In this document: positions 6,251 through 25,316 of the stretch, piece after piece
Numbering within the stretch: the stretch's first letter is position 1
How the letters are laid out: each line of letters starts with the position of its first letter
DNA from: an uncultured Candidatus Saccharibacteria bacterium
GTDB taxonomy: Bacteria; Patescibacteriota; Saccharimonadia; Saccharimonadales; CAIOMD01
Reading direction: 5' to 3'
NCBI GenBank assembly: GCA_964539035.1
Contig: CAZIHK010000010.1
Location: 1-45,246, forward strand
Length of the DNA stretch: 45,246 bases
The notes under the pieces: generated by a model
What the model was told of the DNA's origin: nothing
Seen by the model: only the letters and a program-made list of their open reading frames with translations
Database searches by the model: none
Made by a program: the position numbers and the translations under genes

Positions 6251-6778
6251 TTACCGAATAGTGTCGAGCTCTTGTTTTAATGCTAGCCTTGCAAGGTTTC
6301 TAAATATTCCAGCGTAAACTTGAGATTCGTCATATCCTTCTCTAAATTCTAGCAACCAGCTATCCTCTAGCTCTTCTAGCCTTGACACCTTTAGTTGGGC
6401 ACCGCTTGTTGCGCTTTCCCATTCAAAATATTGGGCATCTTCTGAGCCAAATTCGGCAAAACCAGACATCCCGTTATGTAAATGTCGACGTGGTTCACCA
6501 CTGTATACCCTGCCACCAAAAGAGTTGGTCGCCATGTACACGCAATCGGGTTTGGCTATTTCTTCAAGGTTTGATATCTCATATTGATACATTCTATCTA
6601 TAGTTGGGAGGCCATTGCATAAACTTTGGGATATTTCGCTAACATTTGCAAAACTAATAACTATGCCAGGCCTAACTTTTTCAAAAAGTTCCTCAAAAGC
6701 AAGATCTTCGGTCTTAGCTACTTGGGATTCTCTCAATCCTTCATTTATTGCTTCTTTTTCGCTAATAGTCGTTTTCAT
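6251..6778 (-). CDS. Hypothetical protein, island family C copy 1 (175 aa)
   Basis: Paralog of 23690..24214. Shared motifs: S.SLCN.LP, PD.VY.AT.S.GGR...GEP.RH..HG.S..AEF...DA..FEW.SATSGA, ES.VYAGI..NLAR. Its start overlaps the upstream stop (TAATG). Confidence 0.65.
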   Translation of the reverse strand: MKTTISEKEAINEGLRESQVAKTEDLAFEELFEKVRPGIVISFANVSEISQSLCNGLPTIDRMYQYEISNLEEIAKPDCVYMATNSFGGRVYSGEPRRHLHNGMSGFAEFGSEDAQYFEWESATSGAQLKVSRLEELEDSWLLEFREGYDESQVYAGIFRNLARLALKQELDTIR

Positions 6779-7530
6779 TATTTAGATTCCTCTTTCTCTT
6801 CTTTTTCGCTAATATCCTTAAACATAAGTATGCTAATGTAAGCTATTTCTGGTTCGTCTATTCTGTAAATATCACCGAGCAATGGATTGTCATGTAATTC
6901 TTTGGCATCTACTCTACGGCCAAGCAAAAGCTCTATTGCCTCCAAATGGCTACCTAGGCTATCCCATAACTTCAAAAATACTGGTTCTATATCCGAAAGT
7001 CTTGCATCTGTCTCAAGCCCATGAATTTTACGTGTTACGGCACCATATTCATCTACGACTGGGCACTTTTTGCTAAATTCATTATTTAGTTTTGGGGTCT
7101 CAGTTATGCCTATAGCCTCATCCCTATTGGATAAATTGCTAGTAATATTGTCGGTATTGATATGCTCTAATCCTACAAATCCCAGGTGCCTAAAAATTGC
7201 AGTTTTTTTGGTTTGACCATCTTCACCCTGTTCTTCAATAACTTCGCGTCTAGAAAAAGCATAAACTGGAGCTAGACCCGATTGAGTTAGTTCATACTCC
7301 AGGGGTCTCATAAAATACGGGGCACCACCTATCATTGCCAATTCGCAATTCGACCTAAGTGCAATATCGGCTAATTGCCGTGCCCTAGCGACCATCTCGT
7401 ATATATTTGGTATTTCCTCAAAGGTCAGTAGGGCTTGTATATGGTGCTTGTCTTCTTCGCTTGGCTCAATTACACCTTGAGATATTTGCTCGGCGTTAGC
7501 CTGGTGTTGGGTTAAGTTAAAAATATTCAT
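6778..7530 (-). CDS. Hypothetical protein (250 aa), N-terminal alpha/beta-like domain
   Basis: AAGGAG SD before the ATG. Motifs ELAMIGGAPYFM...YAFSRRE...FRHLGF. No family named. Confidence 0.65.
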   Translation of the reverse strand: MNIFNLTQHQANAEQISQGVIEPSEEDKHHIQALLTFEEIPNIYEMVARARQLADIALRSNCELAMIGGAPYFMRPLEYELTQSGLAPVYAFSRREVIEEQGEDGQTKKTAIFRHLGFVGLEHINTDNITSNLSNRDEAIGITETPKLNNEFSKKCPVVDEYGAVTRKIHGLETDARLSDIEPVFLKLWDSLGSHLEAIELLLGRRVDAKELHDNPLLGDIYRIDEPEIAYISILMFKDISEKEEKEESK

Positions 7531-7557
7531 CTAGTGTCTCTCCTTAGTTATTTTATA

Positions 7558-7625
7558 TTGGGCTTGTTAAAGCTTCATAGGGCAGGTAAGCGTTGCCTAA
7601 CCTATGGAACCTTTAAGTGGTTCCG
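7558..7625. repeat. Conserved imperfect-palindrome element, copy a
   Basis: 68 nt, near-identical in its arms to 9081..9148. Stems CATAGG/CCTATG, GGCA/TGCC and GGAACC/GGTTCC are conserved while the internal loop differs. Confidence 0.6.
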
Positions 7626-7635
7626 GAGTTTTTGA

Positions 7636-7688
7636 TCAATAATCTGTGCTAATGGTCGTTTTCATTATTTAGATTCCTCTTCCTCTTG
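7636..7688 (-). pseudogene. Relic of a duplicated family-C gene start plus the preceding gene end
   Basis: 7648..7688 matches 6761..6801 at 38 of 41 nt. The relic reads ...EEEESK* then ATG (7665) MKTTISTDY* (stop 7638..7636), versus intact MKTTISEKE... at 6778. Confidence 0.5.
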
Positions 7689-7788
7689 TTACTTACCAAA
7701 AACCTTAAATATACAAAGATCGACACAGGCAAATTCAGCTTGATCGACTAGCCACAAACTACCCAATAATTCAGATTTTACTTGCATA

Positions 7789-8514
7789 TTATTCAACAAC
7801 CCCTAGGACTTTTTGCAGTGTTGATTGTCTCTTGCATTCTTCTTCGATTTTGGCCTGATCTTCAAGGGCTTTTTGCTGATCAATTGTTGTCCTGCGTAGC
7901 TGCTCTTCTGCATCCTCTTTGGCCAATCTTTTTTTACGTTTCGCTAAACATTCTTCTTCGTACTCCGACAATCCAGAACGGAATGCTTCAGCGTCTTCAA
8001 TACTTAACTCATTAAAGTTGTAGCTATATTCATTTAATTGATATGTGGAATCTTTATCCCCACTCCTTTTATTGCTGATTGATGCTGGATGCACTTTGCC
8101 TTCCCAGCTTAAAGTAATTTCTGGAGTAATTGGTAACTCTATTGAGCAATGAGCTACAGAGTTGTATCCCTCAATGTGATTGAACCCATAGGGTATCCTT
8201 ATTGTATAAAATCGCCCGGATTCTCTTGCTATTAAGGAAATTGTTTGTACTAACCTATCGATGCTCGCATAGCGTTTTTTTTCGTTTTCGATCTCTATCT
8301 CTTCTAATCGGGTTCTTTCGCTGCACAGATAATTGTCTGCAGCTTTTTCTCCTTGCGCAATTTTACGAGCTGAAGCGCCAAGAATGCCAAAAAGGCGAGT
8401 TGACTCACGATATGGTTTTTCAATATAAGCAGCACCGTAAGCAAGTTCTGCATCGTGAACTGGTTGAGCAAACATATTTATCGGCCTTCTTGTTTGTTTA
8501 TTCTTTTTATACAT
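7789..8514 (-). CDS. Hypothetical protein (241 aa) with charged helical C-terminus
   Basis: TAGGAG SD before the ATG. The C-terminal ~70 aa are E/K/R-rich (coiled-coil-like). No family recognised. Confidence 0.6.
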   Translation of the reverse strand: MYKKNKQTRRPINMFAQPVHDAELAYGAAYIEKPYRESTRLFGILGASARKIAQGEKAADNYLCSERTRLEEIEIENEKKRYASIDRLVQTISLIARESGRFYTIRIPYGFNHIEGYNSVAHCSIELPITPEITLSWEGKVHPASISNKRSGDKDSTYQLNEYSYNFNELSIEDAEAFRSGLSEYEEECLAKRKKRLAKEDAEEQLRRTTIDQQKALEDQAKIEEECKRQSTLQKVLGVVE

Positions 8515-8517
8515 AGT

Positions 8518-9057
8518 TTATCTCCTAAATTTACTTAGATGTTGGAACACGACTGCTGTTTGGGCGGAGTCGTATAACGGATTATGAGTACCTCCAGCAT
8601 AATCTTCTGGGCTAACAGTAATCCCGTATTTTTTGGCGTAGCTGTCTACCGAAGTAGGATCTTCGTTTATTTGTAGCAAGCTTGCCGATAAATCAATAAG
8701 AGGATAGGGGCCATCAAAGTCACCGATATAACCTCTGTCATGCATGTCTTTGATAAGCCCAGACTCTACCGGTGTGGCCATGTGTGCGATAACCAATGAT
8801 CCTAAATTCTTGGCCTTTTCGATGTAATAGTCAGAAAAATCTTTCAATAAGGCATCGTAAGTGCCATGTGATATGTCAATCGACTCCATCTGAGGTAATA
8901 CATTTTGTGCAACCCACTCGTTAACTTCTTCTTCAATTGGGCATCGACCAATAAATCTATCGGTCTCGTCGCAGCCTTCGTAATATATTGCGGCAACCGC
9001 AAATGGTTGGCCCCAAAGACCGTTAGTCTCTGCGTCAAAGCTAAATATTTTTGTCAT
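8518..9057 (-). CDS. DEDDh-type (DnaQ/RNase T-like) 3'-5' exonuclease
   Basis: Exo I FSFDAETNGL (DxE), an internal acidic motif, and Exo III GTHNPLYDSAQTA (Hx4D). AAGGA SD. Stand-alone 179-aa domain. Confidence 0.7.
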   Translation of the reverse strand: MTKIFSFDAETNGLWGQPFAVAAIYYEGCDETDRFIGRCPIEEEVNEWVAQNVLPQMESIDISHGTYDALLKDFSDYYIEKAKNLGSLVIAHMATPVESGLIKDMHDRGYIGDFDGPYPLIDLSASLLQINEDPTSVDSYAKKYGITVSPEDYAGGTHNPLYDSAQTAVVFQHLSKFRR

Positions 9058-9080
9058 TGTTTAAATCCTTTTTTAGTTTA

Positions 9081-9148
9081 TTGGGCTTGTTAAAGCTCCA
9101 TAGGATAGGCAAGTATTGCCAAGCCTATGGAACCTTTAAGTGGTTCCG
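9081..9148. repeat. Conserved imperfect-palindrome element, copy b
   Basis: ttgggcttgttaaagctccatagg...cctatggaacctttaagtggttccg; see 7558..7625. It lies 24 nt upstream of the exonuclease start codon (minus strand). Confidence 0.6.
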
Positions 9149-9322: not shown

Positions 9323-9351
9323 ATTATGATATAAAATTGATAATATGTCAA
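9323..9351 (-). promoter_or_regulatory. Putative sigma70-type promoter for operon 1 (minus strand)
   Basis: Minus-strand TTGACA (rc of 9346..9351), 17-nt spacer, CATAAT (rc of 9323..9328). The -35 lies within the conserved tATGTCAATa heptamer context. Confidence 0.45.
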
Positions 9352-9402
9352 TATACGATAGTAAATAAATATTATATTAGATAAGATTCATTCAAACAAA
9401 AA

Positions 9403-9431
9403 TTGACAAATTACAAAATTACTGAATAATT
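9403..9431 (+). promoter_or_regulatory. Putative promoter of TrmB paralog 1
   Basis: TTGACA 9403..9408, 17-nt spacer, ATAATT 9426..9431. The ATG follows 6 nt later. Confidence 0.45.
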
Positions 9432-9437
9432 AAGGTT

Positions 9438-10169
9438 ATGGAATTAGACATTTGCCTAAAAGCCGGGTTAAACGAATCGCAAGCTGTTACTTATTTGCAC
9501 TTAATTGACAACGGGCCACTTACACCGCCAGAGATTGCCGAAGACATTAGCGAGTCTAGAACCAATGTTTATAACATTTTGAATCAACTGCAAAAATTTG
9601 GATTAGTAGAGACCTCACCTGGTAAAAAATCTTTATTTATGGCCAAGAACCCTAGCGCACTAAAACAGCTGGCTGTTTTTAGAGCCCAACAAGCCCAAAA
9701 AACATTACAAGAAATAAACGCCTTATTACCAAATATAATGTCGAAATTCCGCCTATCTCATGACCAGGCTGGGGTGGTGCATATGGATGGCGTAGATGCT
9801 TACGAAGACATTTTTGATGATATTTTTAGAGAAAAATCAGAAGTAACGATTATTAGAAGCGCCCAAGAAACTAACGATCCAGCAATACTTATCGAAATCG
9901 AAAAGCAAATCAAAAGATTGAATAAAGCTAAAATAAATTGCAAAATTATTGAGCCAAAACTTTTTGAAAAATACAATCATAATCTGGCCAATAATATATT
10001 CGTAAAATACTCGGACGACAAACCCATGCCATCCCAGTTGATACTTTATGGCAATAATTTAGTTTTTAACACTTTTGTCGATGGGGTTTCTTGTACGGTA
10101 ATAACTGACCCTAACATTGCAGAAACCCATAGATTTATATTTGAGTTTATGTGGAATAATCTAAAATAA
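9438..10169 (+). CDS. TrmB-family wHTH transcriptional regulator, paralog 1
   Basis: N-terminus GLNESQAVTYLHLIDNGPLTPPEIAEDISESRTNVYNILNQLQKFGLVE is the TrmB-type winged helix. ~245 aa, like the three other copies. Confidence 0.75.
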   Translation: MELDICLKAGLNESQAVTYLHLIDNGPLTPPEIAEDISESRTNVYNILNQLQKFGLVETSPGKKSLFMAKNPSALKQLAVFRAQQAQKTLQEINALLPNIMSKFRLSHDQAGVVHMDGVDAYEDIFDDIFREKSEVTIIRSAQETNDPAILIEIEKQIKRLNKAKINCKIIEPKLFEKYNHNLANNIFVKYSDDKPMPSQLILYGNNLVFNTFVDGVSCTVITDPNIAETHRFIFEFMWNNLK

Positions 10170-10295: not shown

Positions 10296-11117
10296 ATGAC
10301 AGATAGTCACATAATAACCACAGAAAAGCTGCTTCAAGACATAAAACCAGTCATTGATTATTACAAAAAACCGGAGGTGGCTGGTATTTTGTTATATGGT
10401 AGCTGGGGTAGGGGTGAGCAATTGCCGCATTCTGATGTAGATATTGCTGTTATTTGTAACAACAAACATGCGGTCGAAGAAATAGAAGACACTAACTGGG
10501 AAATTAACGATTATTTTGTAGAACCAACTAAGTACGATTACGAATATTTATTTACCCAATCTTTGCCAGAAAGGATGTTTCGTGAATTCGGCCATTTTTG
10601 GACAGAAGATACACGCTTTAATTGGCAACAATCCAAAATTCTTTATGACCAAAACGACATAGTTAAACAATTACTGGCTAAAAAAGCCTACCTACCAGCC
10701 AAAGAAGCAGAAGCTAACCTAAATGTAATTATTATTGTCATAGAAAGGTTGTTGAACTACCACTTGCCGAGATATGTAGATGCTGAAAAATACGTTGAAG
10801 CTCAAATACTATTGAATGGGCTGGTAAATCATGTGGTGCACTACATATACAACAAAAACGGGCTATTATTACCGTATTCATCAGCTTTATTTTATTGGTT
10901 TGATAAAAAAGATTTGCTGGGTAAGCAATCAGTATTGAATCTATTTAGTAATACCGGACTCAACAAAGATGAATGCTTACAGAGAATGAAATTATTTTGG
11001 GAAGTTTGCAATAAACTTGGGATTAAACTAAAAATACGAACCCAAAAAGAATATCTACAATACTTTTTTGAGCTCAACGGCACCAAAAAATGGGAAGATT
11101 ATTATGAAAAACAATAA
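10296..11117 (+). CDS. Nucleotidyltransferase-domain protein (Pol-beta superfamily, KNTase/ANT-like)
   Basis: GILLYGSWGRGEQLPHSDVDIAVI matches the GS-x9-12-DxD minimal NTase motif, followed by a helical C-terminal domain. Confidence 0.65.
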   Translation: MTDSHIITTEKLLQDIKPVIDYYKKPEVAGILLYGSWGRGEQLPHSDVDIAVICNNKHAVEEIEDTNWEINDYFVEPTKYDYEYLFTQSLPERMFREFGHFWTEDTRFNWQQSKILYDQNDIVKQLLAKKAYLPAKEAEANLNVIIIVIERLLNYHLPRYVDAEKYVEAQILLNGLVNHVVHYIYNKNGLLLPYSSALFYWFDKKDLLGKQSVLNLFSNTGLNKDECLQRMKLFWEVCNKLGIKLKIRTQKEYLQYFFELNGTKKWEDYYEKQ

Positions 11118-12027
11118 GGTTTTAATACTTACGGGCCCCGGTGGTTCCGGGAAATCTACAATTGCTGAGCTGTTGAATGATAAATACGGATATACTCTGA
11201 TTGATGGTGACCAATTAGATACCGAATTCTTCCCCGATGGTGGACAGTGGTTGCCGGAGAACAAATTGAGATTAGCGAATGCACATGACAAGATACTTAC
11301 CGCCACCAAAAAAGACTACCTCCTAGGTAAGAATATTGTTCTTGATTATATTATTTTTGGAGATTATTTGAATTTTTTTGATAAGTTTAAAAAAGAGTTT
11401 GGTAGTAATCTTGAGGTGAGAGTTTTACTACCCGGCGAAAAAGAAACCATTTTGCGAGATAAAGATAGGCAATGCTGGACAACTGGTGTCAAGCGCATAA
11501 AAACTGTACGAGAAGAGTTTATTAGTTTAAAGAATGGTATTGGAGAAGAGAACTTCATTGACACGTCAGATCAAACACCACAAGAAACGGCAGAGAATAT
11601 ATTTGAGACAACTACTAATTCGGCTAACCAAATTATGAAAAAGGTTGAATCAGCTGGCGGGGTAATAATTAACGAGTTCAGCGAAGTGGTAGTTGTATTT
11701 ACAGACACAAAAAGCTGGCAACTCCCAAAAGGTACGGTAGAAAAGGATGAAAGTTACTTTGATACTGCAACAAGAAAAATCAAAGAAGAAACGGGTTTAA
11801 AAAACCTTAATTATGTAAAAGAACTGCCTGCATATTCGAGGATATCCACACACGAGGATAACACCATTAGATATATTCATTATTTATTGTTCCGTACTAA
11901 AAAGCAAAATCTAACAGCAAGCGCGGAAGTGACAGAATGTAAGTGGGTACCAATTGAGGAGATCGAACACGAATTAACTCACCCAGAAGATAAACAATTT
12001 GTAAAAAATATTGTTAAAGAAATTTAA
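11104..12027 (+). CDS. Fusion protein: P-loop kinase-like domain plus NUDIX hydrolase domain
   Basis: Trimmed to the ATG at 11104 (MKNNKVLILTGPGGSGKSTIAELL, Walker A). The C-terminal NUDIX box is GTVEKDESYFDTATRKIKEETGL. It overlaps the upstream stop by 14 nt. Confidence 0.7.
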   Translation: MKNNKVLILTGPGGSGKSTIAELLNDKYGYTLIDGDQLDTEFFPDGGQWLPENKLRLANAHDKILTATKKDYLLGKNIVLDYIIFGDYLNFFDKFKKEFGSNLEVRVLLPGEKETILRDKDRQCWTTGVKRIKTVREEFISLKNGIGEENFIDTSDQTPQETAENIFETTTNSANQIMKKVESAGGVIINEFSEVVVVFTDTKSWQLPKGTVEKDESYFDTATRKIKEETGLKNLNYVKELPAYSRISTHEDNTIRYIHYLLFRTKKQNLTASAEVTECKWVPIEEIEHELTHPEDKQFVKNIVKEI

Positions 12028-12038: not shown

Positions 12039-12563
12039 TTATTCCAAATAATCTAATACTTCTGCAATCAGTTTTATGGTTTTGGCATTATGGTCATTTT
12101 CGAACCATTTGTAAGAATAATCTCTTTCTATTAATAGGGCATCAACCTCGATATCTTGGGCCGGTTTGTAGTCCCACTTGTACATATCGCCGACCATTAA
12201 GGCATCGCTCTTTTTAAAACCGTGTGATGCAAGCAGCTCAATTATTCTTTCACTCTTGCCTTCGGGGTATTCTGGTGCAAATTGGATTTCATCCAATACG
12301 TCATCTAGGCCCATGCTGAGCACCATTTGCTTGCGGTTTACCAATGCCTCTTTGGGTGGTAATGGGCTGGTAGATAGCAAAACTCTTTTTATACCTAATT
12401 TGCCTATAGCCTCAAGCGTTTCATGCGCTATAGGTACGGCCTGCATCTCTGTAAAAGGGTCAGCTTCTTCGTCGGCATAGATATGCCAAGGCTCGGCGTA
12501 ATTTTTGTGTTTTGGCGGCTCCCAAAGAGTACCATCGCCATCAAAAAATATTATCTTTTTCAT
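12039..12563 (-). CDS. HAD-superfamily phosphatase
   Basis: Motif I IIFFDGDGTLW (DxDxT), motif II LLSTS, motif IV MVGDMYKWD. AAGGA SD. Confidence 0.7.
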   Translation of the reverse strand: MKKIIFFDGDGTLWEPPKHKNYAEPWHIYADEEADPFTEMQAVPIAHETLEAIGKLGIKRVLLSTSPLPPKEALVNRKQMVLSMGLDDVLDEIQFAPEYPEGKSERIIELLASHGFKKSDALMVGDMYKWDYKPAQDIEVDALLIERDYSYKWFENDHNAKTIKLIAEVLDYLE

Positions 12564-14465: not shown

Positions 14466-14467
14466 GC

Positions 14468-14950: not shown

Positions 14951-14969
14951 ATTGTTCTCCTTTATATAA

Positions 14970-15481: not shown

Positions 15482-15510
15482 AATATAGCATATTGTCAAT
15501 TATATGTCAA
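15482..15510 (-). promoter_or_regulatory. Putative promoter for operon 2 (minus strand)
   Basis: Minus-strand TTGACA (rc 15505..15510), 17 nt, TATATT (rc 15482..15487). A second TGTCAAT heptamer lies at 15494..15500. Confidence 0.45.
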
Positions 15511-15563
15511 TACATAATTAACAATAATATTAAACAGTTATAATAATAATTGTAAAAGTAAGA

Positions 15564-17292: not shown

Positions 17293-17342
17293 ACAAGTTA
17301 GCTCTTACGATATTTAACAGTTTAATTTAATATTTTATTTAT

Positions 17343-18320: not shown

Positions 18321-18328
18321 AAAAGAGG

Positions 18329-19000
18329 CTATATTCCATTATCATCGTTAAATATTTGTTTGCTAACACAATAACAACTTAGTTTACTTACAATATCGCA
18401 ATGCTTTGATATTAGTTCTTGTCGCGAGTCCTTATGGTCTAGAATAGGGTTGCTTCTTTTTTCTTTAGGAAAGTCAGGTGCAAATCCTAGAGTACTTAGG
18501 GCCAATTTATCAATATTTTCTTGATCAATATATCCGACTGGCATACTTAGTTGATTATAATAAACTGTTCCACAACTTATCAGTTCGATTGCAATATCAA
18601 AAGGAATTCTTGCATCTTTTGAGTCTAGAATTACATCTCGGGAAACAGCCATATCTGTTTGATTAGTGGCTAGCATGAAGTTTGCCAAACCTTCTTCTTC
18701 ATAAACCATAAGAACACAACCAAGTTGTTTTTCGCTGACTTGGCACTTACTTAATAAGCAATCTGGGTGTTGGCTCAGATAGCAAAAATCACCCGGCCAG
18801 GGGACTTCTGTAATTGATACTGGCGATAAATCCAAGGGTTGCCATTCTTTGTCGGCTGGTACAAAAATACCGTTTTGGCGCATCCAGCGGTAGCCGTCTT
18901 CTGGCTCCCATCTCTCTATTAATTCATGATTATTATTTTTCGCTACATCATCGTTGTTTATATTGTAATTTTCCAAATTATTAGCATTATATTTTTCCAT
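18329..19000 (-). CDS. Hypothetical protein, island family A copy 2 (223 aa)
   Basis: Family A motifs as above. AAGGA SD. Confidence 0.65.
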   Translation of the reverse strand: MEKYNANNLENYNINNDDVAKNNNHELIERWEPEDGYRWMRQNGIFVPADKEWQPLDLSPVSITEVPWPGDFCYLSQHPDCLLSKCQVSEKQLGCVLMVYEEEGLANFMLATNQTDMAVSRDVILDSKDARIPFDIAIELISCGTVYYNQLSMPVGYIDQENIDKLALSTLGFAPDFPKEKRSNPILDHKDSRQELISKHCDIVSKLSCYCVSKQIFNDDNGI

Positions 19001-19014
19001 GGCTAAGTCCTTAA

Positions 19015-19722
19015 TTATTTAGCAGAATCGTTTTCATTTTCGATAATGATTTTGGGGTGTGGTAAATCCCAACCAGTGTGGCCTGTCCAATCCATATCGA
19101 TTCGATGAGAGTGCGTGTTTTTAGGTTCTATAAGTGTATTTATCCATGATACTTTTTCACATAAATCATGTGCGCAATCATGGCAAATAATAGCTGTACA
19201 TTGATCTAGCCTGCCTTTTTTAACCCAATCGCTGGTATCTAATCTGTCTTCTTCGAATAACCATTCTTGTGGAAACGGATCGACGAACATGCTATAACCA
19301 CCAGCCATGTTAACTATCAAAGCGTTATTGTACTGTACGCTACCTTTTTTAAACTGATTGGGAAATACAGGCTCTAGCTCTTTTTGACAAACAAAACATT
19401 GGTGAATATTTTCGTTTATCAATTCCGGGTTTTCTTGGTGGTGTTCATGTTCACAACCACAATAACTACCAGTAATGGCGTCAATTCTTTTTTCATCAAG
19501 TTCTTCGCGATAGGCGTTACTTTGTTCGTTGTAGATTCCTACCACAGTACTCCAAAACAATTCATTTTCTTTCGTGTCTTCCATCAACGTATCGCTATTC
19601 CACATTTCTTCGGCGGCATCGTAATCAGGGGCTAAATCACCGTCAATAATACATTTTAGCCAAAAAGCTTCACTCTCGGCTTCTATATAGTCATATCTTT
19701 GACTGTCTTTAAATTGTTCCAT
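19015..19722 (-). CDS. Hypothetical Cys/His-rich protein, island family B copy 1 (235 aa)
   Basis: Paralog of 20579..21289. Motifs: PDY..A.EMW.SD, HQCFVCQKELEPVFP, QYNNALI..GGY.MF.DP, AIICHDCAHDLC. AAGGAG SD. Confidence 0.65.
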   Translation of the reverse strand: MEQFKDSQRYDYIEAESEAFWLKCIIDGDLAPDYDAAEEMWNSDTLMEDTKENELFWSTVVGIYNEQSNAYREELDEKRIDAITGSYCGCEHEHHQENPELINENIHQCFVCQKELEPVFPNQFKKGSVQYNNALIVNMAGGYSMFVDPFPQEWLFEEDRLDTSDWVKKGRLDQCTAIICHDCAHDLCEKVSWINTLIEPKNTHSHRIDMDWTGHTGWDLPHPKIIIENENDSAK

Positions 19723-19733
19723 CTCTTATCTCC

Positions 19734-20564
19734 TTATTCTATTATCGATTTATTATCAATTTCGTTGTCGGCATCAAACAAAGTTCTGTTTAAACAGTAG
19801 CAGTATAACTTTTTCATTACATCCATTCGATGCAGTATTCTATCCCGTCGTGGATCTTCGTGGTCTATTATGGGTTCACCTCTTTTTTCTTTCGGAAAAT
19901 CAAGCTCACCACCCATGTAAGTGCTCTCATTTATTTTGTCGATAATATCTTGATTGGTATATCCTACTGGTTTACTCAGTTGATCAAAAAATACAGGGCC
20001 GCAAACTTGTTCAATCATCACATCAAAAGGTATTCTGGTTTCGTCGGGGCTAAGGATAACATCATCCGGACCCGCCATATCAAGTTTTCTTGACACAAGC
20101 ATAACATTTGCAAACTCTCCTTCCTCATCAACTAGATGTAAATAGGCAAGTTGCTTTTCATCGGTATGGCAATCTGGCATTTTACAACCCGGGTGCTGGG
20201 AAAGGTAACAAAAATCACCAGGCCAAGGGGTTTCCGTGGGTGAAAGAGGTGATAAATCTAATGATTGCCAATACTCATCGGCCGGTACAAACCTGCCATT
20301 TTGAAGCACCCACTTATAACCGTCATCTGCTTGCCATTTGTCTAGCGAATCAAGTTCTACTGTTTTTTTTGGTTTAAGCCTAAAGTTGGGCAACATATCC
20401 TCGGGTTTTTCTAGCAATTGCTCAGCTCTCTCTAGCATACCCAAATATTGATGCGCATCCTTGTAACCTTCGGCTTCGCCAGTTGCGATGAAACCTTTCA
20501 ATCTATCAGATTCTGTTTGAGCTTCATCCAAACTGTATCTTTGAATATCGTTATTATTTTCCAT
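19734..20564 (-). CDS. Hypothetical protein, island family A copy 3 with extra N-terminal module (276 aa)
   Basis: Family A core plus an N-terminal ~45 aa (QRYSLDEAQTESDRLKGFIATGEAEGYKDAH) shared with family B and the 117-aa ORF. AAGGAG SD. Confidence 0.65.
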   Translation of the reverse strand: MENNNDIQRYSLDEAQTESDRLKGFIATGEAEGYKDAHQYLGMLERAEQLLEKPEDMLPNFRLKPKKTVELDSLDKWQADDGYKWVLQNGRFVPADEYWQSLDLSPLSPTETPWPGDFCYLSQHPGCKMPDCHTDEKQLAYLHLVDEEGEFANVMLVSRKLDMAGPDDVILSPDETRIPFDVMIEQVCGPVFFDQLSKPVGYTNQDIIDKINESTYMGGELDFPKEKRGEPIIDHEDPRRDRILHRMDVMKKLYCYCLNRTLFDADNEIDNKSIIE

Positions 20565-20578: not shown

Positions 20579-21289
20579 TTATTCTTCTGGAGAACCATCA
20601 AAAATTTCATATTCACCGTCAATCTCATCATTGTTCGATAGACCACAACCCTTATGTTCATCCAAATTATTTTCGTATCCAAAAGTATCCGAATAATCAG
20701 GGTTTATGAATCTGTCCATCCATGGTATTTGTTTGCAAAGATCATGCGCACAGTCCTGGCATATGATTGCCGAATACTCGTTTTCTATCAAGCCATTATT
20801 TAAGATTTCCTTGGGTTCCATATCTTCTATCAATATTGGATCAATATACATGCCATAACCTCCATCGATGTCGATTATTAAAGCATTTTCGTATTGTGTG
20901 CACTTTTTATTGAAATGAAAAACATCAGGAAACACAGGTATGAGCTCTGTGTGGCAAGCAAAACAATGGTGATAACTTTCATGCAGTTTATCACGATGTT
21001 CCTTAAGCCAATTAGCCTGATACTCATTTATATATTTATCACGTAGGTCAATGACTGTTCTCCAAAAAAATGCATTTTGATCGGTATCTTCTAGTAGTCG
21101 ATCACTGCCCCACATTTCATCAGCTGATTCGTAGTCAGGTGAAAAACCACTGTCAACCATACTCCTTAGCAATACTGCTTCATCTTCGGCTTGCTCTTTG
21201 CCAAGTCTGGCCGGATACTTATTTTCTTTCTGAGGGCTTTTAATATTGTTAATATCGTTATCCCAATTGTCTTCATAATTCTTTTTCAT
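20579..21289 (-). CDS. Hypothetical Cys/His-rich protein, island family B copy 2 (236 aa)
   Basis: HHCFACHTELIPVFP, QYENALI..GGYGMY.DP, AIICQDCAHDLC. AAGGAG SD. Confidence 0.65.
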   Translation of the reverse strand: MKKNYEDNWDNDINNIKSPQKENKYPARLGKEQAEDEAVLLRSMVDSGFSPDYESADEMWGSDRLLEDTDQNAFFWRTVIDLRDKYINEYQANWLKEHRDKLHESYHHCFACHTELIPVFPDVFHFNKKCTQYENALIIDIDGGYGMYIDPILIEDMEPKEILNNGLIENEYSAIICQDCAHDLCKQIPWMDRFINPDYSDTFGYENNLDEHKGCGLSNNDEIDGEYEIFDGSPEE

Positions 21290-21342
21290 CTTATCGTCTC
21301 CTTGTATTTAAAAAATTTGCGATAATTAGCGCTACTGTTCTC

Positions 21343-21696
21343 TTAGCCTTCTGGGCCATAATCAATTTGGAACTCTTTTCCGATACCGTGGTGTTGAATA
21401 TCGATTTTTTCCCAAATACCAAGATCATCTTGCTCTGGTGCTGGGGTTTCTATTACGCCAGTGAAAACGTCCCAGTCGTATTCATTCCAGTTCCATTCTT
21501 TCCACATGTGCTTATCCATTTCTTGCATCACTTTTTCGAAGCAAGAAGCCCAGCCGGCATCAACGATTCTTAAAAATTTAGCATGTGCTGATTTATAATC
21601 TTCGGCATAGTTATTCTTTACACAATCTTTAATTGCTTCAGCTTCTAGCTGTGCGGCTTCTATCCCTAATCTTTGGCAATCTATATATTCTTTCAT
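21343..21696 (-). CDS. Hypothetical protein (117 aa) carrying the shared N-terminal module
   Basis: CQRLGIEAAQLEAEAIKDCVKNNYAEDYKSAH aligns with the N-termini of 19015..19722, 19734..20564 and 20579..21289. W-rich C-terminus. Confidence 0.6.
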   Translation of the reverse strand: MKEYIDCQRLGIEAAQLEAEAIKDCVKNNYAEDYKSAHAKFLRIVDAGWASCFEKVMQEMDKHMWKEWNWNEYDWDVFTGVIETPAPEQDDLGIWEKIDIQHHGIGKEFQIDYGPEG

Positions 21697-21717
21697 TTTA
21701 ATTAACCTCTCGTGGCC

Positions 21718-22542
21718 TTAATTATTATTTAAAAATCGGTGTAATTTTTGTTCGGTTTCACTGTCAACCAAATTATCTTTAATGATTATGTATTCTGCCT
21801 TAAAGCCATAGCCTCTTAAAATATCCAGTACTTCTTCTTGTGAATCCTTGTTATTTTGCAGGTCTTCTTGCAATAGCTCGAATATTTCAGACTTATTATC
21901 GTCCAACCAAAGAATTGGACTGTTTCCTATATATTGAACGAGTAGCATTGTTTTAATACTTTTGTTAAATGTTGATTCACCTATCACGCTAACGGGTTGG
22001 ACGTCGGTAAGCGGAACTTTTGAAATTTTTGTTCCATTTTCATTGTCTTCCATGCAATCTGATTCATAAATATAGTCGTCATCTAGGTCATGAAATACCT
22101 CTGCCCTAGTGAATCTAGCTGAACTATTAATTACTAAATCATTTGCTGAAGGTACAATTATAGGTAGTTGAACCATAGCGCTTCTGGCCTCGGGATCTCG
22201 TGGTGAAAATAGATAGTTAAATAAATAGCTTGGGTGAAAATGTATGTCTATCACAACATCAAAATTATCTGGATCTATGTCATTATCGTATAAGTCTGAT
22301 TGATAAATACTACCTAAAAACATTCCTTTGATATGATTGGTACCACAAGCACTAATACTTTCAGTATTTCCGCTTTTTCTATCTTTTACAACGAAAAAAC
22401 CACTCTCATTACCTTCTTCTTTGTCAGTGAAGTTTGTACAAAAATCCCAACTACGAATAAATTCTCTCGAAGTAATTATTTGCTTTAACTCCTCAGCTGT
22501 TAGTTCCTCGTTGTTGTGAGATAACATCTCATGATTTCCCAT
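21718..22542 (-). CDS. Hypothetical protein (274 aa) with possible JAB/MPN (JAMM)-like motif; first gene of operon 3
   Basis: NESGFFVV ... IDIHFHPSYLFNYLFSPRD approximates E...HxH-x(7-10)-SxxD of JAMM/RadC-type metallopeptidases (spacing is 9, not 7). AAGGA SD. Confidence 0.35.
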   Translation of the reverse strand: MGNHEMLSHNNEELTAEELKQIITSREFIRSWDFCTNFTDKEEGNESGFFVVKDRKSGNTESISACGTNHIKGMFLGSIYQSDLYDNDIDPDNFDVVIDIHFHPSYLFNYLFSPRDPEARSAMVQLPIIVPSANDLVINSSARFTRAEVFHDLDDDYIYESDCMEDNENGTKISKVPLTDVQPVSVIGESTFNKSIKTMLLVQYIGNSPILWLDDNKSEIFELLQEDLQNNKDSQEEVLDILRGYGFKAEYIIIKDNLVDSETEQKLHRFLNNN

Positions 22543-22726
22543 AATTATATCCTTAAATTATCCCTTTCGCTCTTAAATTGAGCTCATCGGTACAGCAAAG
22601 TAGCTGTAGAGGGAGGCGCAAAGCGCTTTGGGTGATAAACCCTAAGTGCTTTTACGTGCTCTTACATTTGTTGATGGCTAAAACTATTGCCCCAAAGGTA
22701 CTTGTCCAAAATTGGACACGGCCATA

Positions 22727-22755
22727 ATAATATTACATAATTGTATTAATGTCAA
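22727..22755 (-). promoter_or_regulatory. Putative promoter for operon 3 (minus strand)
   Basis: Minus-strand TTGACA (rc 22750..22755), 17 nt, TATTAT (rc 22727..22732). Confidence 0.45.
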
Positions 22756-22818
22756 TGATGAGTTATAATAAATATTAGTTAATAAATAGATATAGAATCT
22801 AATAATGACAAAACAAAT

Positions 22819-22847
22819 TTGACATATTAAGATAGATATGTAATCAT
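22819..22847 (+). promoter_or_regulatory. Putative promoter of TrmB paralog 3
   Basis: TTGACA 22819..22824, a 16-17 nt spacer, TAATCA/AATCAT. The ATG at 22855 follows 7 nt later. Confidence 0.4.
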
Positions 22848-22854: not shown

Positions 22855-23601
22855 ATGATAAAAGAAGCTTTATTAGAACAAGCAGGTCTTAACCAGAGCG
22901 AAGTAAAGGTATATAAACGACTGCTAGAATATGGCGAGCTTGCCCCACCTAGATTATCTGAACTAACAGGCCTGGCACGCCAAAACACCTATGCAGCACT
23001 AAAAACATTAACAAAAAAAGAGCTGATTGAGGTCGTATCACGCAGGAAAAAGCTTGCCTATCAGGTGCAACATCCCAATAAACTGGTCGAACTGGTCGAT
23101 AAACAGATAGATGAGTCTAAAATGGTCCAAAAATCCCTAAAAGCCAACATGCCAGAATTAATAAGTTTATTTAGTTTGGCTAGCAGCAAGCCCGGCATTA
23201 TTTATTTTGATGGGCTGGAAAGTATTAAAAATATATATTTAGATGGCTTAAGGTCTAAACCAGAAGAAGTATTGGTATTTAGGTCTACGCACGACGATGA
23301 TAAACTCGGGGTTTTTTTGACAAGTTTTAAGAAGCGCAGAGCTCTTAACGGCACAAAAACTAAAATGATTTCGCAAACGATACCCACCAAAGAGAAAATA
23401 GAAGAAGATAAACAACTACTCATACAACGAAAGTACGTACCTGACGATATTTTTCACCTAGATACTGAAATTGCAATTGCAGATAATCAAGTTTCTTTTA
23501 TAACTTTCGATAAGCAAATTAAAGGGTTTGTTATAACAAGTAAAGAGGTGGCACAGACTCTGCGAACAATTTTTGAGAGTCTCTGGGTAGCTGAATTTTA
23601 A
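22855..23601 (+). CDS. TrmB-family wHTH transcriptional regulator, paralog 3
   Basis: GLNQSEVKVYKRLLEYGELAPPRLSELTGLARQNTYAALKTLTKKELIE. Confidence 0.75.
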   Translation: MIKEALLEQAGLNQSEVKVYKRLLEYGELAPPRLSELTGLARQNTYAALKTLTKKELIEVVSRRKKLAYQVQHPNKLVELVDKQIDESKMVQKSLKANMPELISLFSLASSKPGIIYFDGLESIKNIYLDGLRSKPEEVLVFRSTHDDDKLGVFLTSFKKRRALNGTKTKMISQTIPTKEKIEEDKQLLIQRKYVPDDIFHLDTEIAIADNQVSFITFDKQIKGFVITSKEVAQTLRTIFESLWVAEF

Positions 23602-23608
23602 TAATATT

Positions 23609-23649
23609 AAAAACCCTCTGCAAATTTTGTAAAAATGCAGAGGGTTTTT
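23609..23649. terminator. Bidirectional intrinsic terminator
   Basis: AAAAACCCTCTGCA-N13-TGCAGAGGGTTTTT, a perfect 14-bp stem flanked by A and T runs, between convergent genes ending at 23601 (+) and 23690 (-). Confidence 0.75.
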
Positions 23650-23689
23650 ATTGCTTAATTGTCAGTTAAGCCAAAGCCACAAGTATGGC

Positions 23690-24214
23690 TTAGACTTCTA
23701 AGCTTACTTCTTGGCTAACAACCCATCTTGCAAGGTTAGCATAGATACCTGCATATACATTTGATTCATGCTCACCTTCTGCGAACTGAATCCTCCAGGT
23801 ACCGTCACTATTCTTTGTGGCTCTTATGGTTGCACCACTAGTGGCACTTTGCCATTCGAAAGATTCAGCATCATCAGGACTAAACTCGGCATAGGTAGAA
23901 ATACCATGGCCAATATGACGTGTTGGCTCACCAACCCAATCTCTTCCACCCATAGAATGAGTTGCAATATATACTCTGTCTGGCGATGCTATCTGATCTG
24001 GGTTTGTTATACCGTAATCTCTGGCTCTTTCTTCTTGTAGCGGCAAAGAATTGCATAAGCTATGAGATATCGTTACAACGTTTTGCCAATTTACGTCCAA
24101 TCCGTCTGGATGCATTTGTTGAGCGAATAAAAATGGTGATTCATATTCCTCACTTTCGTCACGGTATTCACCCAACCCTTCGGCGATTACAGTTTGTTTA
24201 TCTAAGTAATTCAT
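23690..24214 (-). CDS. Hypothetical protein, island family C copy 2 (174 aa)
   Basis: Paralog of 6251..6778 (motifs listed there). AAGGAG SD. Monocistronic, between the terminator and the divergent promoter region. Confidence 0.65.
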   Translation of the reverse strand: MNYLDKQTVIAEGLGEYRDESEEYESPFLFAQQMHPDGLDVNWQNVVTISHSLCNSLPLQEERARDYGITNPDQIASPDRVYIATHSMGGRDWVGEPTRHIGHGISTYAEFSPDDAESFEWQSATSGATIRATKNSDGTWRIQFAEGEHESNVYAGIYANLARWVVSQEVSLEV

Positions 24215-24259
24215 TATTACTTTTCTCCTTATTTGGTATTACTCTATAAATTATTTTAT

Positions 24260-24332
24260 AAAGCTCCTTAGGGCGGATCAGTCGGCTCCGACCTAAGGAG
24301 CTTTATACGGGTTAGAGCATGCCCAACCCGTA
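24260..24332. repeat. Hairpin element related to 7558..7625 and 9081..9148, plus a second hairpin
   Basis: AAAGCTCCTTAGG-N19-CCTAAGGAGCTTT (24260..24304). It begins with the same aaagctcc[a/t]tagg as the other copies and is followed by TACGGGTT-N11-AACCCGTA (24306..24332). Confidence 0.55.
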
Positions 24333-24449
24333 TATCGCATATATTCTTTTTAATGTTCACTAAGCGTTGTTGGTACCAGCTCAATTGTTTTTTGTTTTAA
24401 TGTTTTGTTTTTCCCGCTCGAGTTCTATGTGCTCGTTCGGGACAAATGC

Positions 24450-24478
24450 AGTATGCCATAAAATATATTATATGTCAA
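24450..24478 (-). promoter_or_regulatory. Putative promoter for family C copy 2 (minus strand)
   Basis: Minus-strand TTGACA (rc 24473..24478) within tATGTCAATa, 17 nt, CATACT (rc 24450..24455). Confidence 0.4.
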
Positions 24479-24517
24479 TACTTATCAGGATATAGTAACT
24501 AGTAACAGATGATATAA

Positions 24518-24537
24518 TGTCAATAAAGGATTGACAA
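24518..24537. promoter_or_regulatory. Perfect inverted repeat TGTCAAT-N6-ATTGACA (candidate operator)
   Basis: tgtcaat aaagga attgaca. The right arm is the -35 of the TrmB paralog 4 promoter. Confidence 0.45.
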
Positions 24538-24559
24538 TTATATTAATATAACATATAAT
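24531..24559 (+). promoter_or_regulatory. Putative promoter of TrmB paralog 4
   Basis: TTGACA 24531..24536, 17 nt, TATAAT 24554..24559. The ATG at 24567 follows 7 nt later. Confidence 0.55.
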
Positions 24560-24566
24560 GTGTGAG

Positions 24567-25316
24567 ATGGATTATATAGAAATACTAAAAAAACTCGGCC
24601 TCAATGAATCTCAAGCAAAAGCCTATTTAGCGCTAGTAGGTAACGATAACTTGACCCCGCCAGACTTAGCAGTAGAGATAGGAGAAAAAAGAACAGCTAC
24701 ATATATGATATTGGCTCGATTAGAAGAGCTGGGTTTGGCAAGTAAAGCAGAGGGTAGTAGAGCAAGATATATCGCCGAAAGCCCGACAAAATTAAAAGAA
24801 ATACTTGTAGCAAAACAGTCTGAGCATCAACAGCTCCAGCGTTCCTTGATATCGATCATGCCAGCACTAAATGCAGAATATAACATTGCATATCAAAAAC
24901 CCGGGGTTGTGTACATGGAGGGGATCCAGGGCTTGAAGTATGTTTATAACGAAATAATTGATAATGGAGAGGATATAATGTTATTACCAAGCCAAGACGT
25001 ATTTGATAATAGCGAATTAGTGAAACTTATCGAAGGCAATGTAGAAAAACAAAGAAAAAGGGGTATCAATACAAGAACCATATATCCCAAAACCGATAAA
25101 GCCTATCTGGAGGCAAAAAAGCATACAGACGCCAATGTATCTGTTAGGTACTTCGGTAACTCGTCAATGCAGACGGCACAGATAATCCTATACGCCAATA
25201 CGGTTGCAATCACCACATTCCAGCCTGGGATATTTAATACAGTTATTACAAATCCATTATTAGCGAACACATTTAAGGGCTATTTTGAAGATATGTGGGC
25301 AGCAGGCGAATGCTAA
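24567..25316 (+). CDS. TrmB-family wHTH transcriptional regulator, paralog 4
   Basis: The track ORF starts at 24558, but that ATG overlaps the consensus -10 box. MDYIEILKKLGLNESQAKAYLALVGNDNLTPPDLAVEIGEKRTATYMILARLEELGLAS aligns with the other paralogs starting from the ATG at 24567. Confidence 0.75.
   Translation: MDYIEILKKLGLNESQAKAYLALVGNDNLTPPDLAVEIGEKRTATYMILARLEELGLASKAEGSRARYIAESPTKLKEILVAKQSEHQQLQRSLISIMPALNAEYNIAYQKPGVVYMEGIQGLKYVYNEIIDNGEDIMLLPSQDVFDNSELVKLIEGNVEKQRKRGINTRTIYPKTDKAYLEAKKHTDANVSVRYFGNSSMQTAQIILYANTVAITTFQPGIFNTVITNPLLANTFKGYFEDMWAAGEC

Follow-up and report, generated by a model that had tools for sequence, protein, structure and literature searches.

On a 45,246-bp contig from the metagenome-assembled genome of an uncultured member of the Saccharibacteria (TM7; NCBI locus tags WCP03_*), hereafter the window, ~19 kb of sequence to the right of a tRNA-Ser(GGA) gene are occupied by four units of one design (modules 1–4), in each of which a plus-strand regulator of the TrmB type (TrmB1–TrmB4) stands head-to-head with a minus-strand operon (the cargo) of 4, 5, 9 or 1 genes, respectively. 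The ArgS protein of the window is ~50% identical to its top match among 185,579 reference species, with nearly all top matches in Saccharimonadales. With a probability that we estimate at roughly 60%, the region is a lineage-specific accumulation in which a regulatory unit common among Saccharibacteria is present four times. The coordinates of all features are collected in Table 1, and loci from other genomes and contigs used for comparison are designated by L numbers.

Four TrmBL2-type regulators divergent from cargo operons

All four regulators (~250 aa) pass the Pfam threshold for the TrmB winged helix-turn-helix (wHTH) domain PF01978 (E 1e-11 to 4e-13, 43–49.5 bits vs. a cutoff of 25.6) and share 26–32% pairwise identity over their full length. 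This bears out the proposal of a first-pass annotation of this DNA, the open reading frame (ORF) coordinates of which also match our ORF map, that they are paralogs divergent from minus-strand operons. A profile of the four proteins aligns with the TrmBL2 structures 5BPD/5BOX over residues 7–246 (TrmBL2 residues 12–261; E 3.1e-11), whereas the match to full-length TrmB (3QPH) covers residues 5–142, the N-terminal half only; Pfam returned no match beyond the wHTH in any of the four, the sugar-binding domain PF11495 included. The regulators therefore have the short TrmBL2-type architecture without a sugar-binding domain.

The likeness to the Thermococcales proteins (5BPD, 5BOX, 3QPH) thus consists of an N-terminal wHTH and an alignable ~260-aa architecture. 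In contrast to these, the window regulators are bacterial (an E-value of 3e-11 implies 20–30% identity), their candidate half-site is TGTCA/TGACA, and they are predicted to be dedicated local regulators facing a cargo operon, whereas TrmBL2 is a global chromatin-like protein. The TGM site of TrmB and TrmBL1 is TATCAC-N5-GTGATA, and the candidate operator described below is likewise an inverted repeat with fixed arm spacing.

Regulators of this family are common (at least 117 clusters). TrmB4 and TrmB3 have orthologs in L084 (87.5 and 82% identity), TrmB3 has another in L087 (79%), the L095 regulator is 39% identical to TrmB4, and orthologs or homologs of TrmB2 (36–59%) are found in L092, L089, L090, L091, L066, L022 and L073. 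The L084 ortholog, along with operator spacing, backs position 24567 rather than 24558 as the start of TrmB4. A genome scan seeded with the alignment of the four paralogs was unproductive, the sequences being too divergent. Each of six further TrmB genes that were sampled proved to be head-to-head with genes lacking any Pfam family, often near a dnaG-rpoD-polA block, and divergence from family-less genes is a general Saccharibacteria arrangement. In L091 (6001–11252), two TrmB genes lie within 5 kb of each other, with NUDIX, HhH-GPD, RNase_T and family-less genes between them; multi-TrmB clusters are therefore not specific to the window.

Promoter geometry and a candidate operator

The sharing of TGTCAAT/ATTGACA heptamers by the four regulator–cargo intergenic regions (IG1–IG4), as pointed out earlier, is real and non-random: 8 of the 14 occurrences in the 45 kb fall in the 1.2 kb that these regions make up. 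The heptamers have two roles. The cargo-side TGTCAAT, read on the opposite strand as ATTGACA, is the −35 box of a near-consensus promoter; the best sigma-70-like sites of the 19.6 kb are all in the four intergenic regions, in both orientations. On the regulator side, they provide the arms of an inverted repeat, TGTCA-N9-TGACA, upstream of TrmB, the right arm being the −35 box of the TrmB promoter (which in the case of TrmB4 matches the consensus at 12/12 positions). The end of this repeat is 29–30 nt from the TrmB ATG in 12–14 of 15 TrmB upstream regions, distant genomes included, so that the predicted transcription start site (TSS) falls at or beside the start codon and TrmB mRNAs are predicted to be leaderless.

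The repeat stands at an equal distance upstream of TrmB homologs in L022, L044, L091, L092 and L095, and in IG4 of L084 its half-sites are kept and its spacer is changed. In L089 and L090, the operator position is taken by a variant, TGTGA-N9-TCACA, and the cargo −35 box (TGTCAA) is unchanged; the operator varies with the regulator whereas the promoter box does not, which tells the two apart. Judging by this pattern, TGTCA-N9-TGACA is probably the TrmB operator. In ~1.5 Mb of sequence, the exact repeat occurs five times, four of them directly upstream of TrmB; the copy in L048, inside a MurE-like coding region, was dismissed as a chance match. Distances between the cargo −35 box and the operator, obtained with a promoter-picking heuristic of our own in which two loci were mis-picked or outliers, fall into two classes (44–47 and 54–57 bp), one helical turn apart, a spacing that points to a need for the bound regulator to face the cargo promoter. 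An internal promoter for g12592 at 13724–13696 was rejected: its spacer contains an AAGGAG ribosome-binding site (RBS) directly before the ATG at 13695.

Co-inheritance of regulators and cargo

Three regulator–cargo pairings are inherited independently. TrmB3 is accompanied by family B in L084 and in L087, in the latter along with the same small membrane protein. TrmB2 is accompanied by the g12592 family in L092 (59 and 62% identity to the window regulator and cargo protein, respectively) and in L090 (40 and 30%; head-to-head). In L095 and L096, a TrmB1/TrmB4-type regulator (39%) stands opposite an MJ1673/Csx20-like gene (product 53% identical to g6778, as measured for L095), which is followed by a family A relative (38%); this pairing, also found in L084, corresponds to the g6778–g6251 pair of module 1. 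The co-inheritance of three pairs across distant genomes argues that the regulators are genuinely linked to their cargo. The TrmB2–g12592 pair is phylum-wide and not a lineage novelty, and the modules represent distinct TrmB subfamilies that diverged long ago and differ from one another in cargo and distribution. The four units thus look like separate regulons of one design and not like the single undescribed system that had been suggested.

Around these cores, genes are quickly duplicated, swapped and lost. In a close relative, L084 (ArgS 90% identical), TrmB4 (88%), family A (86%) and TrmB3 (82%) keep their places, and operon 3 begins with two unrelated genes and contains a single family B gene and no family C. 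Identity to L084 is 90–97% (amino acids) for backbone proteins vs. 71–88% for island proteins; the block therefore evolves faster than its backbone, and its cargo is being replaced. Both this replacement and the pairs co-inherited in distant genomes agree with the earlier description of the region as modular, fast-evolving and regulator-linked.

A variable chromosomal site

The block occupies a variable chromosomal spot that extends from tRNA-Ser to NQO-DUF1361-argS. In 50 relatives with both PGI and DUF1361-argS in the fetched locus, the distance from PGI to DUF1361/argS is 140–5,113 bp vs. 23.5 kb in the window, and no cargo genes were found near argS in 80 relatives. L032 has the same frame minus the island (PGI-MacB-ABC-tRNA-Ser-NQO-argS): this tRNA-Ser lies ~1 kb from the NQO gene, and the ABC gene and NQO are 2.9 kb apart vs. 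19.6 kb in the window. The island itself was seen in at least three independent metagenomes. The block is therefore polymorphic for presence and absence among relatives, in line with the accessory status proposed for it.

Of the earlier picture, the tRNA gene and its adjacency, accessory status and lack of integrase, conjugation and phage structural genes (Pfam and PHROG scans of the window ORFs) stand. A tRNA attachment (att) signature is missing: no att direct repeat of the tRNA is present at the far border, and the sole repeat lies near the tRNA. This 15-nt exact direct repeat (6165–6179) of the tRNA-Ser 3′ end (5984–5998), 167 nt downstream of the tRNA (E 0.005), may have been left by a small integration in the past or may be due to chance. 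Across the tRNA 3′ end and adjoining sequence, at 5989–6048, lies a 29-nt inverted repeat (83%), which could be a terminator or processing hairpin. The G+C content of the block equals that of its flanks. Thus, like tRNA-adjacent genomic islands, the block adjoins a tRNA, is missing in relatives, has variable content and holds many genes without a family; unlike them, it has no integrase, no far-border att repeat and no G+C shift, which rules out one integrase-mediated insertion at the tRNA. Its content looks built from native, anciently diverged regulatory modules, not from one imported element.

Two genes to the right are also variable: a flavodoxin-like NQO gene (25404–26081), which follows TrmB4 and is found near argS solely in L032 and L084, and a gene for a 500-aa protein after argS (28591–30093), which is without an NCBIfam match and was found in only 4 of 80 relatives. 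The variable zone therefore reaches past the limits first reported (6251–25316). To the left of the tRNA, a MacB-like permease/ABC ATPase pair together with gene 2950–3579 (window 2633–5811) is present in 8 of 80 relatives; being missing from most, it places the beginning of the insertion, relative to the PGI...DUF1361 backbone, near 2633 and not at the tRNA.

Table 1. Features of the four-module region (window coordinates; a dot marks features without assigned strand)
Feature	Position	Strand	Basis or remarks
tRNA-Ser(GGA), left landmark of the insertion	5908..5998	+	ARAGORN; Rfam tRNA 58.5 bits
Module 1 cargo g6251, family A protein, 175 aa	6251..6778	-	43% identical to g23690
Module 1 cargo g6778, N-terminal MJ1673/Csx20-like (CARF-like) domain	6778..7530	-	PADLOC Csx20 E 2.3e-6
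Duplication scar in operon 1	7531..7788	-	3′ end of a g6778-like gene, truncated family A start (~7642-7671), second leader hairpin (7556-7625)
Module 1 cargo g7789, 241 aa	7789..8514	-	no significant Pfam, NCBIfam, PADLOC or PHROG match
Module 1 cargo g8518, possible DEDD/RNase H-like exonuclease (weak)	8518..9057	-	PHROG 2259 'RNase H' E 3.7e-4
Long leader hairpin, module 1, ~35-45 nt upstream of RBS	9079..9148	-	89% repeat of 7556-7625
Module 1 cargo promoter TTGACA-17-CATAAT	9323..9351	-	11/12 consensus
IG1 degenerate candidate operator 9390-9408 (2 mismatches) overlapping TrmB1 promoter 9403-9430	9390..9430	+	predicted TSS at or next to ATG
TrmB1, TrmBL2-type regulator	9438..10169	+	PF01978 E 4e-13; TrmBL2 profile match
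Minimal nucleotidyltransferase (Pol-beta/MNT/ANT(4′)-like), co-directional with TrmB1	10296..11117	+	PF18765 E 6.5e-9, PF01909 E 2e-8
P-loop kinase-NUDIX hydrolase fusion	11104..12027	+	PF00293 E 7.7e-18; AAA_17/CoaE-like N-terminus; start from L001 gene call
Module 2 cargo g12039, HAD-family hydrolase	12039..12563	-	PF00702 26.7 bits vs. cutoff 26.4; PF13419 25.2 bits, above cutoff
Module 2 cargo g12592, 367 aa, family recurrently paired with TrmB2-type regulators	12592..13695	-	62% to L092 gene, 30% to L090 gene
Module 2 cargo, three family-less genes g13734 (HEYGH motif), g14468, g14970	13734..15455	-	no Pfam, PADLOC, PHROG or NCBIfam matches
IG2 control region	15482..15592	.	cargo promoter 15510..15482; inverted repeats 15505-15523 (1 mismatch) and 15551-15569 (2 mismatches, end 29 nt ahead of ATG); TrmB2 promoter
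TrmB2, most widely conserved subfamily	15599..16378	+	PF01978 E 9e-12
Module 3 conserved tail: g16387 (301 aa) and g17343 (80-aa membrane protein)	16387..17585	-	79% and 72% to L084 genes
Family B g17604 (17604-18320), g18329 (18329-19000), g19734 (19734-20564), interleaved with family C g19015 (19015-19722)	17604..20564	-	MazF/PemK fold predicted
Module 3 variable head: family C g20579, g21343, g21718	20579..22542	-	absent from L084 and L087 operon versions; no family matches
Type III hammerhead ribozyme (predicted), U4C core variant, module 3 leader	22558..22616	-	descriptor match; covariation; covariance model score 81.5 bits
IG3 control region	22727..22847	.	cargo promoter 22755..22727; candidate operator 22806-22824 (1 mismatch); TrmB3 promoter 22819-22847
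TrmB3	22855..23601	+	PF01978 E 3.8e-11
Bidirectional terminator-like hairpin between convergent TrmB3 and family A genes	23608..23650	.	inverted repeat I11, 20-nt arms, 90%; also covered by weak leader- and terminator-type Rfam alignments
Module 4 cargo g23690, family A protein, 174 aa, sole cargo gene of module 4	23690..24214	-	86% to same-position L084 ortholog
Long leader hairpin, module 4	24257..24307	-	inverted repeat I8, 95%; consensus structure
IG4 control region	24450..24559	.	cargo promoter 24478..24450; exact candidate operator TGTCAATAAAGGATTGACA 24518-24536; TrmB4 promoter 24531-24559
TrmB4	24567..25316	+	PF01978 E 6e-12

Structured leader RNAs

The leaders of operons 1, 3 and 4 are 180–260 nt long and contain conserved structures, a hammerhead ribozyme motif and a long hairpin, that the first-pass account of the region lacked, as it did the MazF fold of family B discussed below. 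Read 5′ to 3′, the module 3 hammerhead starts with stem III (UCCCU/AGGGA) and C17; the hairpin of stem I then leads to CCGAUGA, and that of stem II to GAAA, with the RBS next. The predicted cleavage site, after C 22609, would leave a 66-nt 5′ untranslated region. The core (C3 U4 G5 A6 N7 G8 A9...G12 A13 A14, A15.1-U16.1, H17) is complete in the window except that U4 is C. In an alignment of six sequences, 98.9% of the cells are paired (vs. 37–53% in slid controls) and 12 of 15 pairs are compensatory (values reached by 0/500 shuffles); with nine sequences, the values are 97% and 13 of 15, the slid controls ranging from 36 to 53% across both alignments.

Orthologs of this hammerhead are present in L084, L088 and L087, L087 having two more canonical copies between small genes; a pattern scan added two copies in unrelated metagenome contigs, and a covariance model found an independent one in L092, within a TrmB2-type operon, but no copy in 1.4 Mb of argS neighborhoods. 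The window, L084, L088 and L094 have C at position 4; L087 (all three copies), L092 and L093 are canonical. The additional L087 copies (197–253 and 1126–1181, minus strand) are type III hammerheads with CUGAUGA/CUGACGA cores, 6-bp stems I and III and a UA cleavage site; they lie downstream of the TrmB3 ortholog and flank single genes, like described prophage hammerheads. The L094 copy (4081–4139, minus strand, on the 443-kb contig Ga0208789_1000014), from a more GC-rich, unrelated organism, is of the U4C type with a covarying stem I; ~85 nt downstream of it is a gene whose product begins with MEKILFALGWG. The C4 core variant is therefore kept outside the clade of the window.

Natural hammerheads with the U4C change have been documented, which are slow in vitro but work in vivo, and the genes next to bacterial hammerheads are known to differ in identity (PMC3088659). 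The copies described here share with bacterial and prophage type III hammerheads (Perreault et al., 2011, PMC3088659) the three-helix junction, the CUGAUGA...GAAA core with A15.1-U16.1 and H17, and the position between or upstream of diverse genes. In contrast to prophage examples, the Saccharibacteria copies are chromosomal, without prophage context, and stand directly upstream of the RBS in TrmB-divergent operons; the U4C form is moreover found in at least four distinct sequences with covarying stems, and all copies score below the Rfam hammerhead thresholds. Indeed, Rfam did not report the window copy even at E ≤ 5 and scored the L087 copies at 19.3 and 23.6 bits vs. cutoffs of 52 and 34; at gathering threshold it returned only the tRNA, and permissive scans of the leaders gave chance-level matches, so neither leader element fits an Rfam family. 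A literature search found no paper linking TrmB or hammerheads to Saccharibacteria, and engineering papers only on hammerheads combined with toxin–antitoxin (TA) systems.

The long hairpin of modules 1 and 4, also not in Rfam, lies 35–45 nt ahead of the RBS and has a consensus of 17 pairs, four of them compensatory, common to IG1, the scar at 7531–7788, IG4, L084 and L086; the whole module 4 leader has a folding z-score of −6.3. In L095, the ~490-nt interval between the TrmB and MJ1673-like genes (3088–3574) contains an exact copy of the candidate operator along with a consensus promoter, an ORF call of 37 aa that is doubtful and, just ahead of the RBS, a long hairpin, CUAUGGAUCUUCU...AGAAGAUCGAUAG, which is like those of IG1 and IG4 in position and not clearly in sequence.

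Cargo genes

As the first-pass annotation had noted, most of the 19 minus-strand genes belong to no nameable family (18 have no Pfam match above threshold). The paralog families that it recognized among them also hold, with identities of 43% within family A, 40–53% among the family B proteins g17604, g18329 and g19734, and 35% between the family C proteins g19015 and g20579; in addition, a ~40-aa N-terminal segment is common to g19734, g21343, g20579 and g19015. Its enzymatic calls fared unevenly. The HAD assignment of g12039 passes the Pfam cutoff, and the DEDDh exonuclease proposed for g8518 retains one weak PHROG 'RNase H' match along with FDAETNGL and H-x4-D motifs read from the sequence only, with no Pfam, NCBIfam or PDB match, whereas the metzincin, YfiH, JAB and ART calls, which rest on short motifs, gained none from Pfam, NCBIfam or PDB sequence searches. 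The latter searches were empty or at chance level for g8518, g13734, g12592, g21718, g16387 and g6778; the g12592-family profile had no Pfam or PDB match, and g16387 and g17343 match no family.

Family B is a predicted MazF/PemK fold. An AlphaFold2 model (predicted local distance difference test, pLDDT, 73; predicted template-modeling score, pTM, 0.71) retrieved by Foldseek only MazF structures among the top 50 PDB matches (E from 5e-5; template-modeling score by target 0.6–0.74) and PemK-like proteins from BFVD. By sequence, there was no PF02452 or other Pfam match, a PDB profile search was empty, and hhalign against a sequence of B. subtilis MazF gave a probability of 3.9%. The family is extremely narrow, with 12 members among 5.8e9 proteins and none found by a pattern scan of the 185,579 reference genomes; in scans of viral contigs, neither family A nor family B nor the hammerhead pattern was matched. 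Like MazF/PemK toxins, family B occurs in multiple, tandemly duplicated copies in an accessory region, and the predicted fold of its core matches MazF of M. tuberculosis, B. subtilis and S. aureus. It differs from them in length (220–350 vs. ~115 aa), with extra N-terminal beta-hairpin/helical segments and C-terminal helices or acidic tails, in the absence of a recognizable MazE/PemI partner and of detectable sequence similarity, and in having a separate divergent TrmB as its presumed control.

Family C precedes two of the three family B copies in the window, follows family B in L088 and is absent from L084 and L087; the small membrane protein of the g17343 type also occurs in L087. Five family B members (P0009, P0010, P0012, P0013 and P0015) have highly acidic C-terminal tails of 40–70 aa ending in YKIRHxxNQW, which the window copies do not have; these could be intramolecular inhibitors of the MazF-like groove. 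Ahead of family B in L084 (8114–9001), L087 (3460–4626) and L088 (72–1319) lies a 'family D' (27–30% identity between members), absent from the window, where family C, g21343 and g21718 are at that position.

For family A, which occurs in modules 1 and 4, only four close relatives were found in 5.8e9 proteins, and a search of 1.84e9 representatives added 38 distant ones; common motifs are LCN, VYMAT-S-GGR and W-SATSGA. Its profile has no Pfam or PDB relative, and its AlphaFold2 model is poor (pLDDT 58), the fold search being without meaning (best E 0.2, template-modeling score <0.3). The N-terminal ~120 aa of the adjacent g6778 protein align with Csx20 models, and homologs carry precomputed PF27247 (MJ1673) matches, g6778 itself having none in our local Pfam copy. 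Csx20 is an experimentally confirmed ring nuclease for cA4 with a CARF-like fold (bioRxiv 10.1101/2024.09.24.614671). As points of difference, g6778 scores 30 bits against NCBIfam CAS_Csx20 (E 5.6e-7) vs. a cutoff of 70, the window ORFs scanned include no cas genes or type III CRISPR context, and the domain is fused to an extra ~130-aa C-terminal region, with a family A gene always next. The internal duplication scars noticed earlier are confirmed in this operon by repeats of 89% (7556–7625 vs. 9079–9148) and 83% (7648–7713 vs. 6761–6826, the latter with the truncated family A start).

On the plus strand, the nucleotidyltransferase downstream of TrmB1 has sub-threshold NCBIfam matches to MntA-like proteins (E 1.4e-7) and ANT(4′)-I (E 3.9e-4), and homologs of the kinase-NUDIX fusion adjoin family B/C genes in L087 and L088.

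Proposed mode of action

The model that we propose builds on the observed anatomy, conserved motifs, co-inherited pairs, RNA covariation, cargo turnover and accessory status; in it, DNA binding, the direction of regulation, ribozyme activity and all cargo functions are predictions. Each unit comprises (i) a ~250-aa TrmBL2-type wHTH regulator with the right arm of TGTCA-N9-TGACA as its −35 box and a putatively leaderless mRNA; (ii) a back-to-back, near-consensus sigma-70 promoter 44–47 or 54–57 bp off, presumed to drive the divergent cargo operon; and (iii) a long structured cargo leader, with the type III hammerhead in module 3 and the 17-bp hairpin in modules 1 and 4. A TrmB dimer would bind the inverted repeat, block its own −35 box (autorepression) and control the cargo promoter too, from the same helix face, until a ligand or signal acts on the TrmB C-terminal domain. 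In module 3, the hammerhead would remove the first ~110 nt of the leader, leaving a structured 5′-OH mRNA end, and the cargo would include at least one RNA-targeting toxin-like family.

Several observations weigh against parts of this model. IG1 and IG2 hold degenerate versions of the operator (2 mismatches), in IG3 one half-site is swapped, and, since its right arm doubles as a −35 box, the operator could be conserved in part as a promoter element. Situated ~−85 to −95 from the cargo start, it is ill-placed for simple steric repression of the cargo promoter, so that regulation could be of either sign, and the spacing classes depend on our own heuristic with its two deviating loci. The C at core position 4 of the window hammerhead lowers in vitro activity (PMC3088659), and this copy is below every Rfam threshold. 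Finally, the family B fold comes from one AlphaFold2 model built from 12 sequences, without a sequence link to MazF.

A more ambitious extension can be offered only as speculation, with little expectation that it will prove correct as a whole: Saccharibacteria would possess a dedicated expression chassis, made up of a TrmBL2-type repressor, the TGTCA-N9-TGACA operator, a consensus promoter and a leader, either self-cleaving or hairpin-forming, that stops right ahead of the RBS. Rapidly evolving genes for toxins or effectors would be exchanged in this chassis for use against phages or actinobacterial hosts. The Csx20-like protein and family A would then form a CRISPR-independent oligonucleotide-signaling module, and the hammerhead would decouple the cargo mRNA from the leader and mark the cassette junction.

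Alternative interpretations

It is conceivable, if rather doubtful, that module 3 consists of TA or addiction cassettes, with family B proteins as RNA-cleaving toxins, TrmB3 as an outer layer of control, and, as antitoxins, either the zinc-ribbon-like family C proteins encoded upstream or the extensions of family B itself (at the N-terminus, and acidic at the C-terminus). The predicted MazF fold, the alternating gene order (C-B-C-B-B; B then C in L088), the resemblance of the long acidic tails of several members to MazE-type groove binders, and tandem duplication with rapid turnover, which is typical of TA loci, all fit such a scheme. Nevertheless, in the absence of sequence similarity to MazF its catalytic residues are not mappable; family B occurs without family C in L084 and L087, where the unrelated family D precedes it; family C matches no antitoxin family; and known type II pairs depend for autoregulation on their own antitoxin and not on a separate TrmB.

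Metabolites are the classical signals to which TrmB-family regulators respond, and the units could accordingly be seen as ordinary metabolite-responsive regulons (e.g., for nucleotide salvage/sanitation or cell-wall editing), with TrmBs sensing host-derived small molecules and the cargo made up of divergent housekeeping enzymes of a poorly sampled phylum. We regard this as unlikely, even though the TrmB2–g12592 pair is conserved across the phylum near the dnaG-rpoD-polA block, NUDIX, P-loop kinase, HAD, RNase_T, HhH-GPD and M15 peptidase genes are recurrent neighbors, and the G+C content of the block equals that of its flanks. HAD alone among the cargo matches a metabolic family; modules 1, 3 and 4 are found in a very narrow clade, with gene content differing between 90%-identical relatives; the MazF-fold triplet and the Csx20-like domain are atypical of metabolism; and the regulators resemble TrmBL2, without a sugar-binding domain.

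The link to conflict or defense suggested by the first-pass annotation did not find support: PADLOC detected no known defense system, returning generic matches only (Csx20-like, PDC-S09 nucleotidyltransferase, PDC-S07 NUDIX), all below family thresholds, and most of the enzyme domains called earlier were not verified. We therefore judge it improbable that the 19 kb, or at least modules 1 and 3, constitute a new anti-phage or conflict system of sensor, signal and effector under TrmB control, made up of the MNT-like nucleotidyltransferase, the kinase-NUDIX fusion, the Csx20-like CARF-type domain, the exonuclease and the MazF-fold proteins. What lends this idea some appeal is the combination of the predicted family B fold, a domain related to a proven cA4 ring nuclease (bioRxiv 10.1101/2024.09.24.614671), MntA-, HalB- and PDC-S09-like matches of the nucleotidyltransferase and the PDC-S07 match of NUDIX with very narrow families, fast cargo turnover and an accessory site. 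However, the modules have separate histories and occur singly elsewhere, module 2 being phylum-wide, and there is neither a Cas10/cyclase partner in the window nor a relative in viral contigs nor any other defense gene in the flanks.

That the repeated architecture is an annotation coincidence of unrelated HTH genes beside AT-rich, promoter-like words is hardly credible: promoter-like sites overall are as frequent as in shuffled sequence (69 vs. 67 expected) and TTGACA is simply the −35 consensus, but full-length paralogy, the identical geometry in four intergenic regions and distant genomes, and regulator–cargo co-inheritance refute it.

Implications

Gene regulation has hardly been studied in Saccharibacteria or in other bacteria of the candidate phyla radiation. 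Interpreted as an accumulation of copies of a common regulatory unit, the locus provides a phylum-wide regulator family with a predicted operator and a fixed promoter geometry, three regulator–cargo pairings that define candidate regulons, and a naturally maintained U4C hammerhead in a chromosomal 5′ leader. It also brings to light protein families without relatives of known structure (family A and the g12592 family) and one, family B, that is tied to MazF by structure prediction only. If the cargo acts in conflict between the episymbiont and its host or phages, the four-fold array would illustrate how a reduced genome can diversify functions of this kind with no help from mobile-element machinery; metabolite-responsive modules, on the other hand, would offer a first handle on what obligate epibionts sense.

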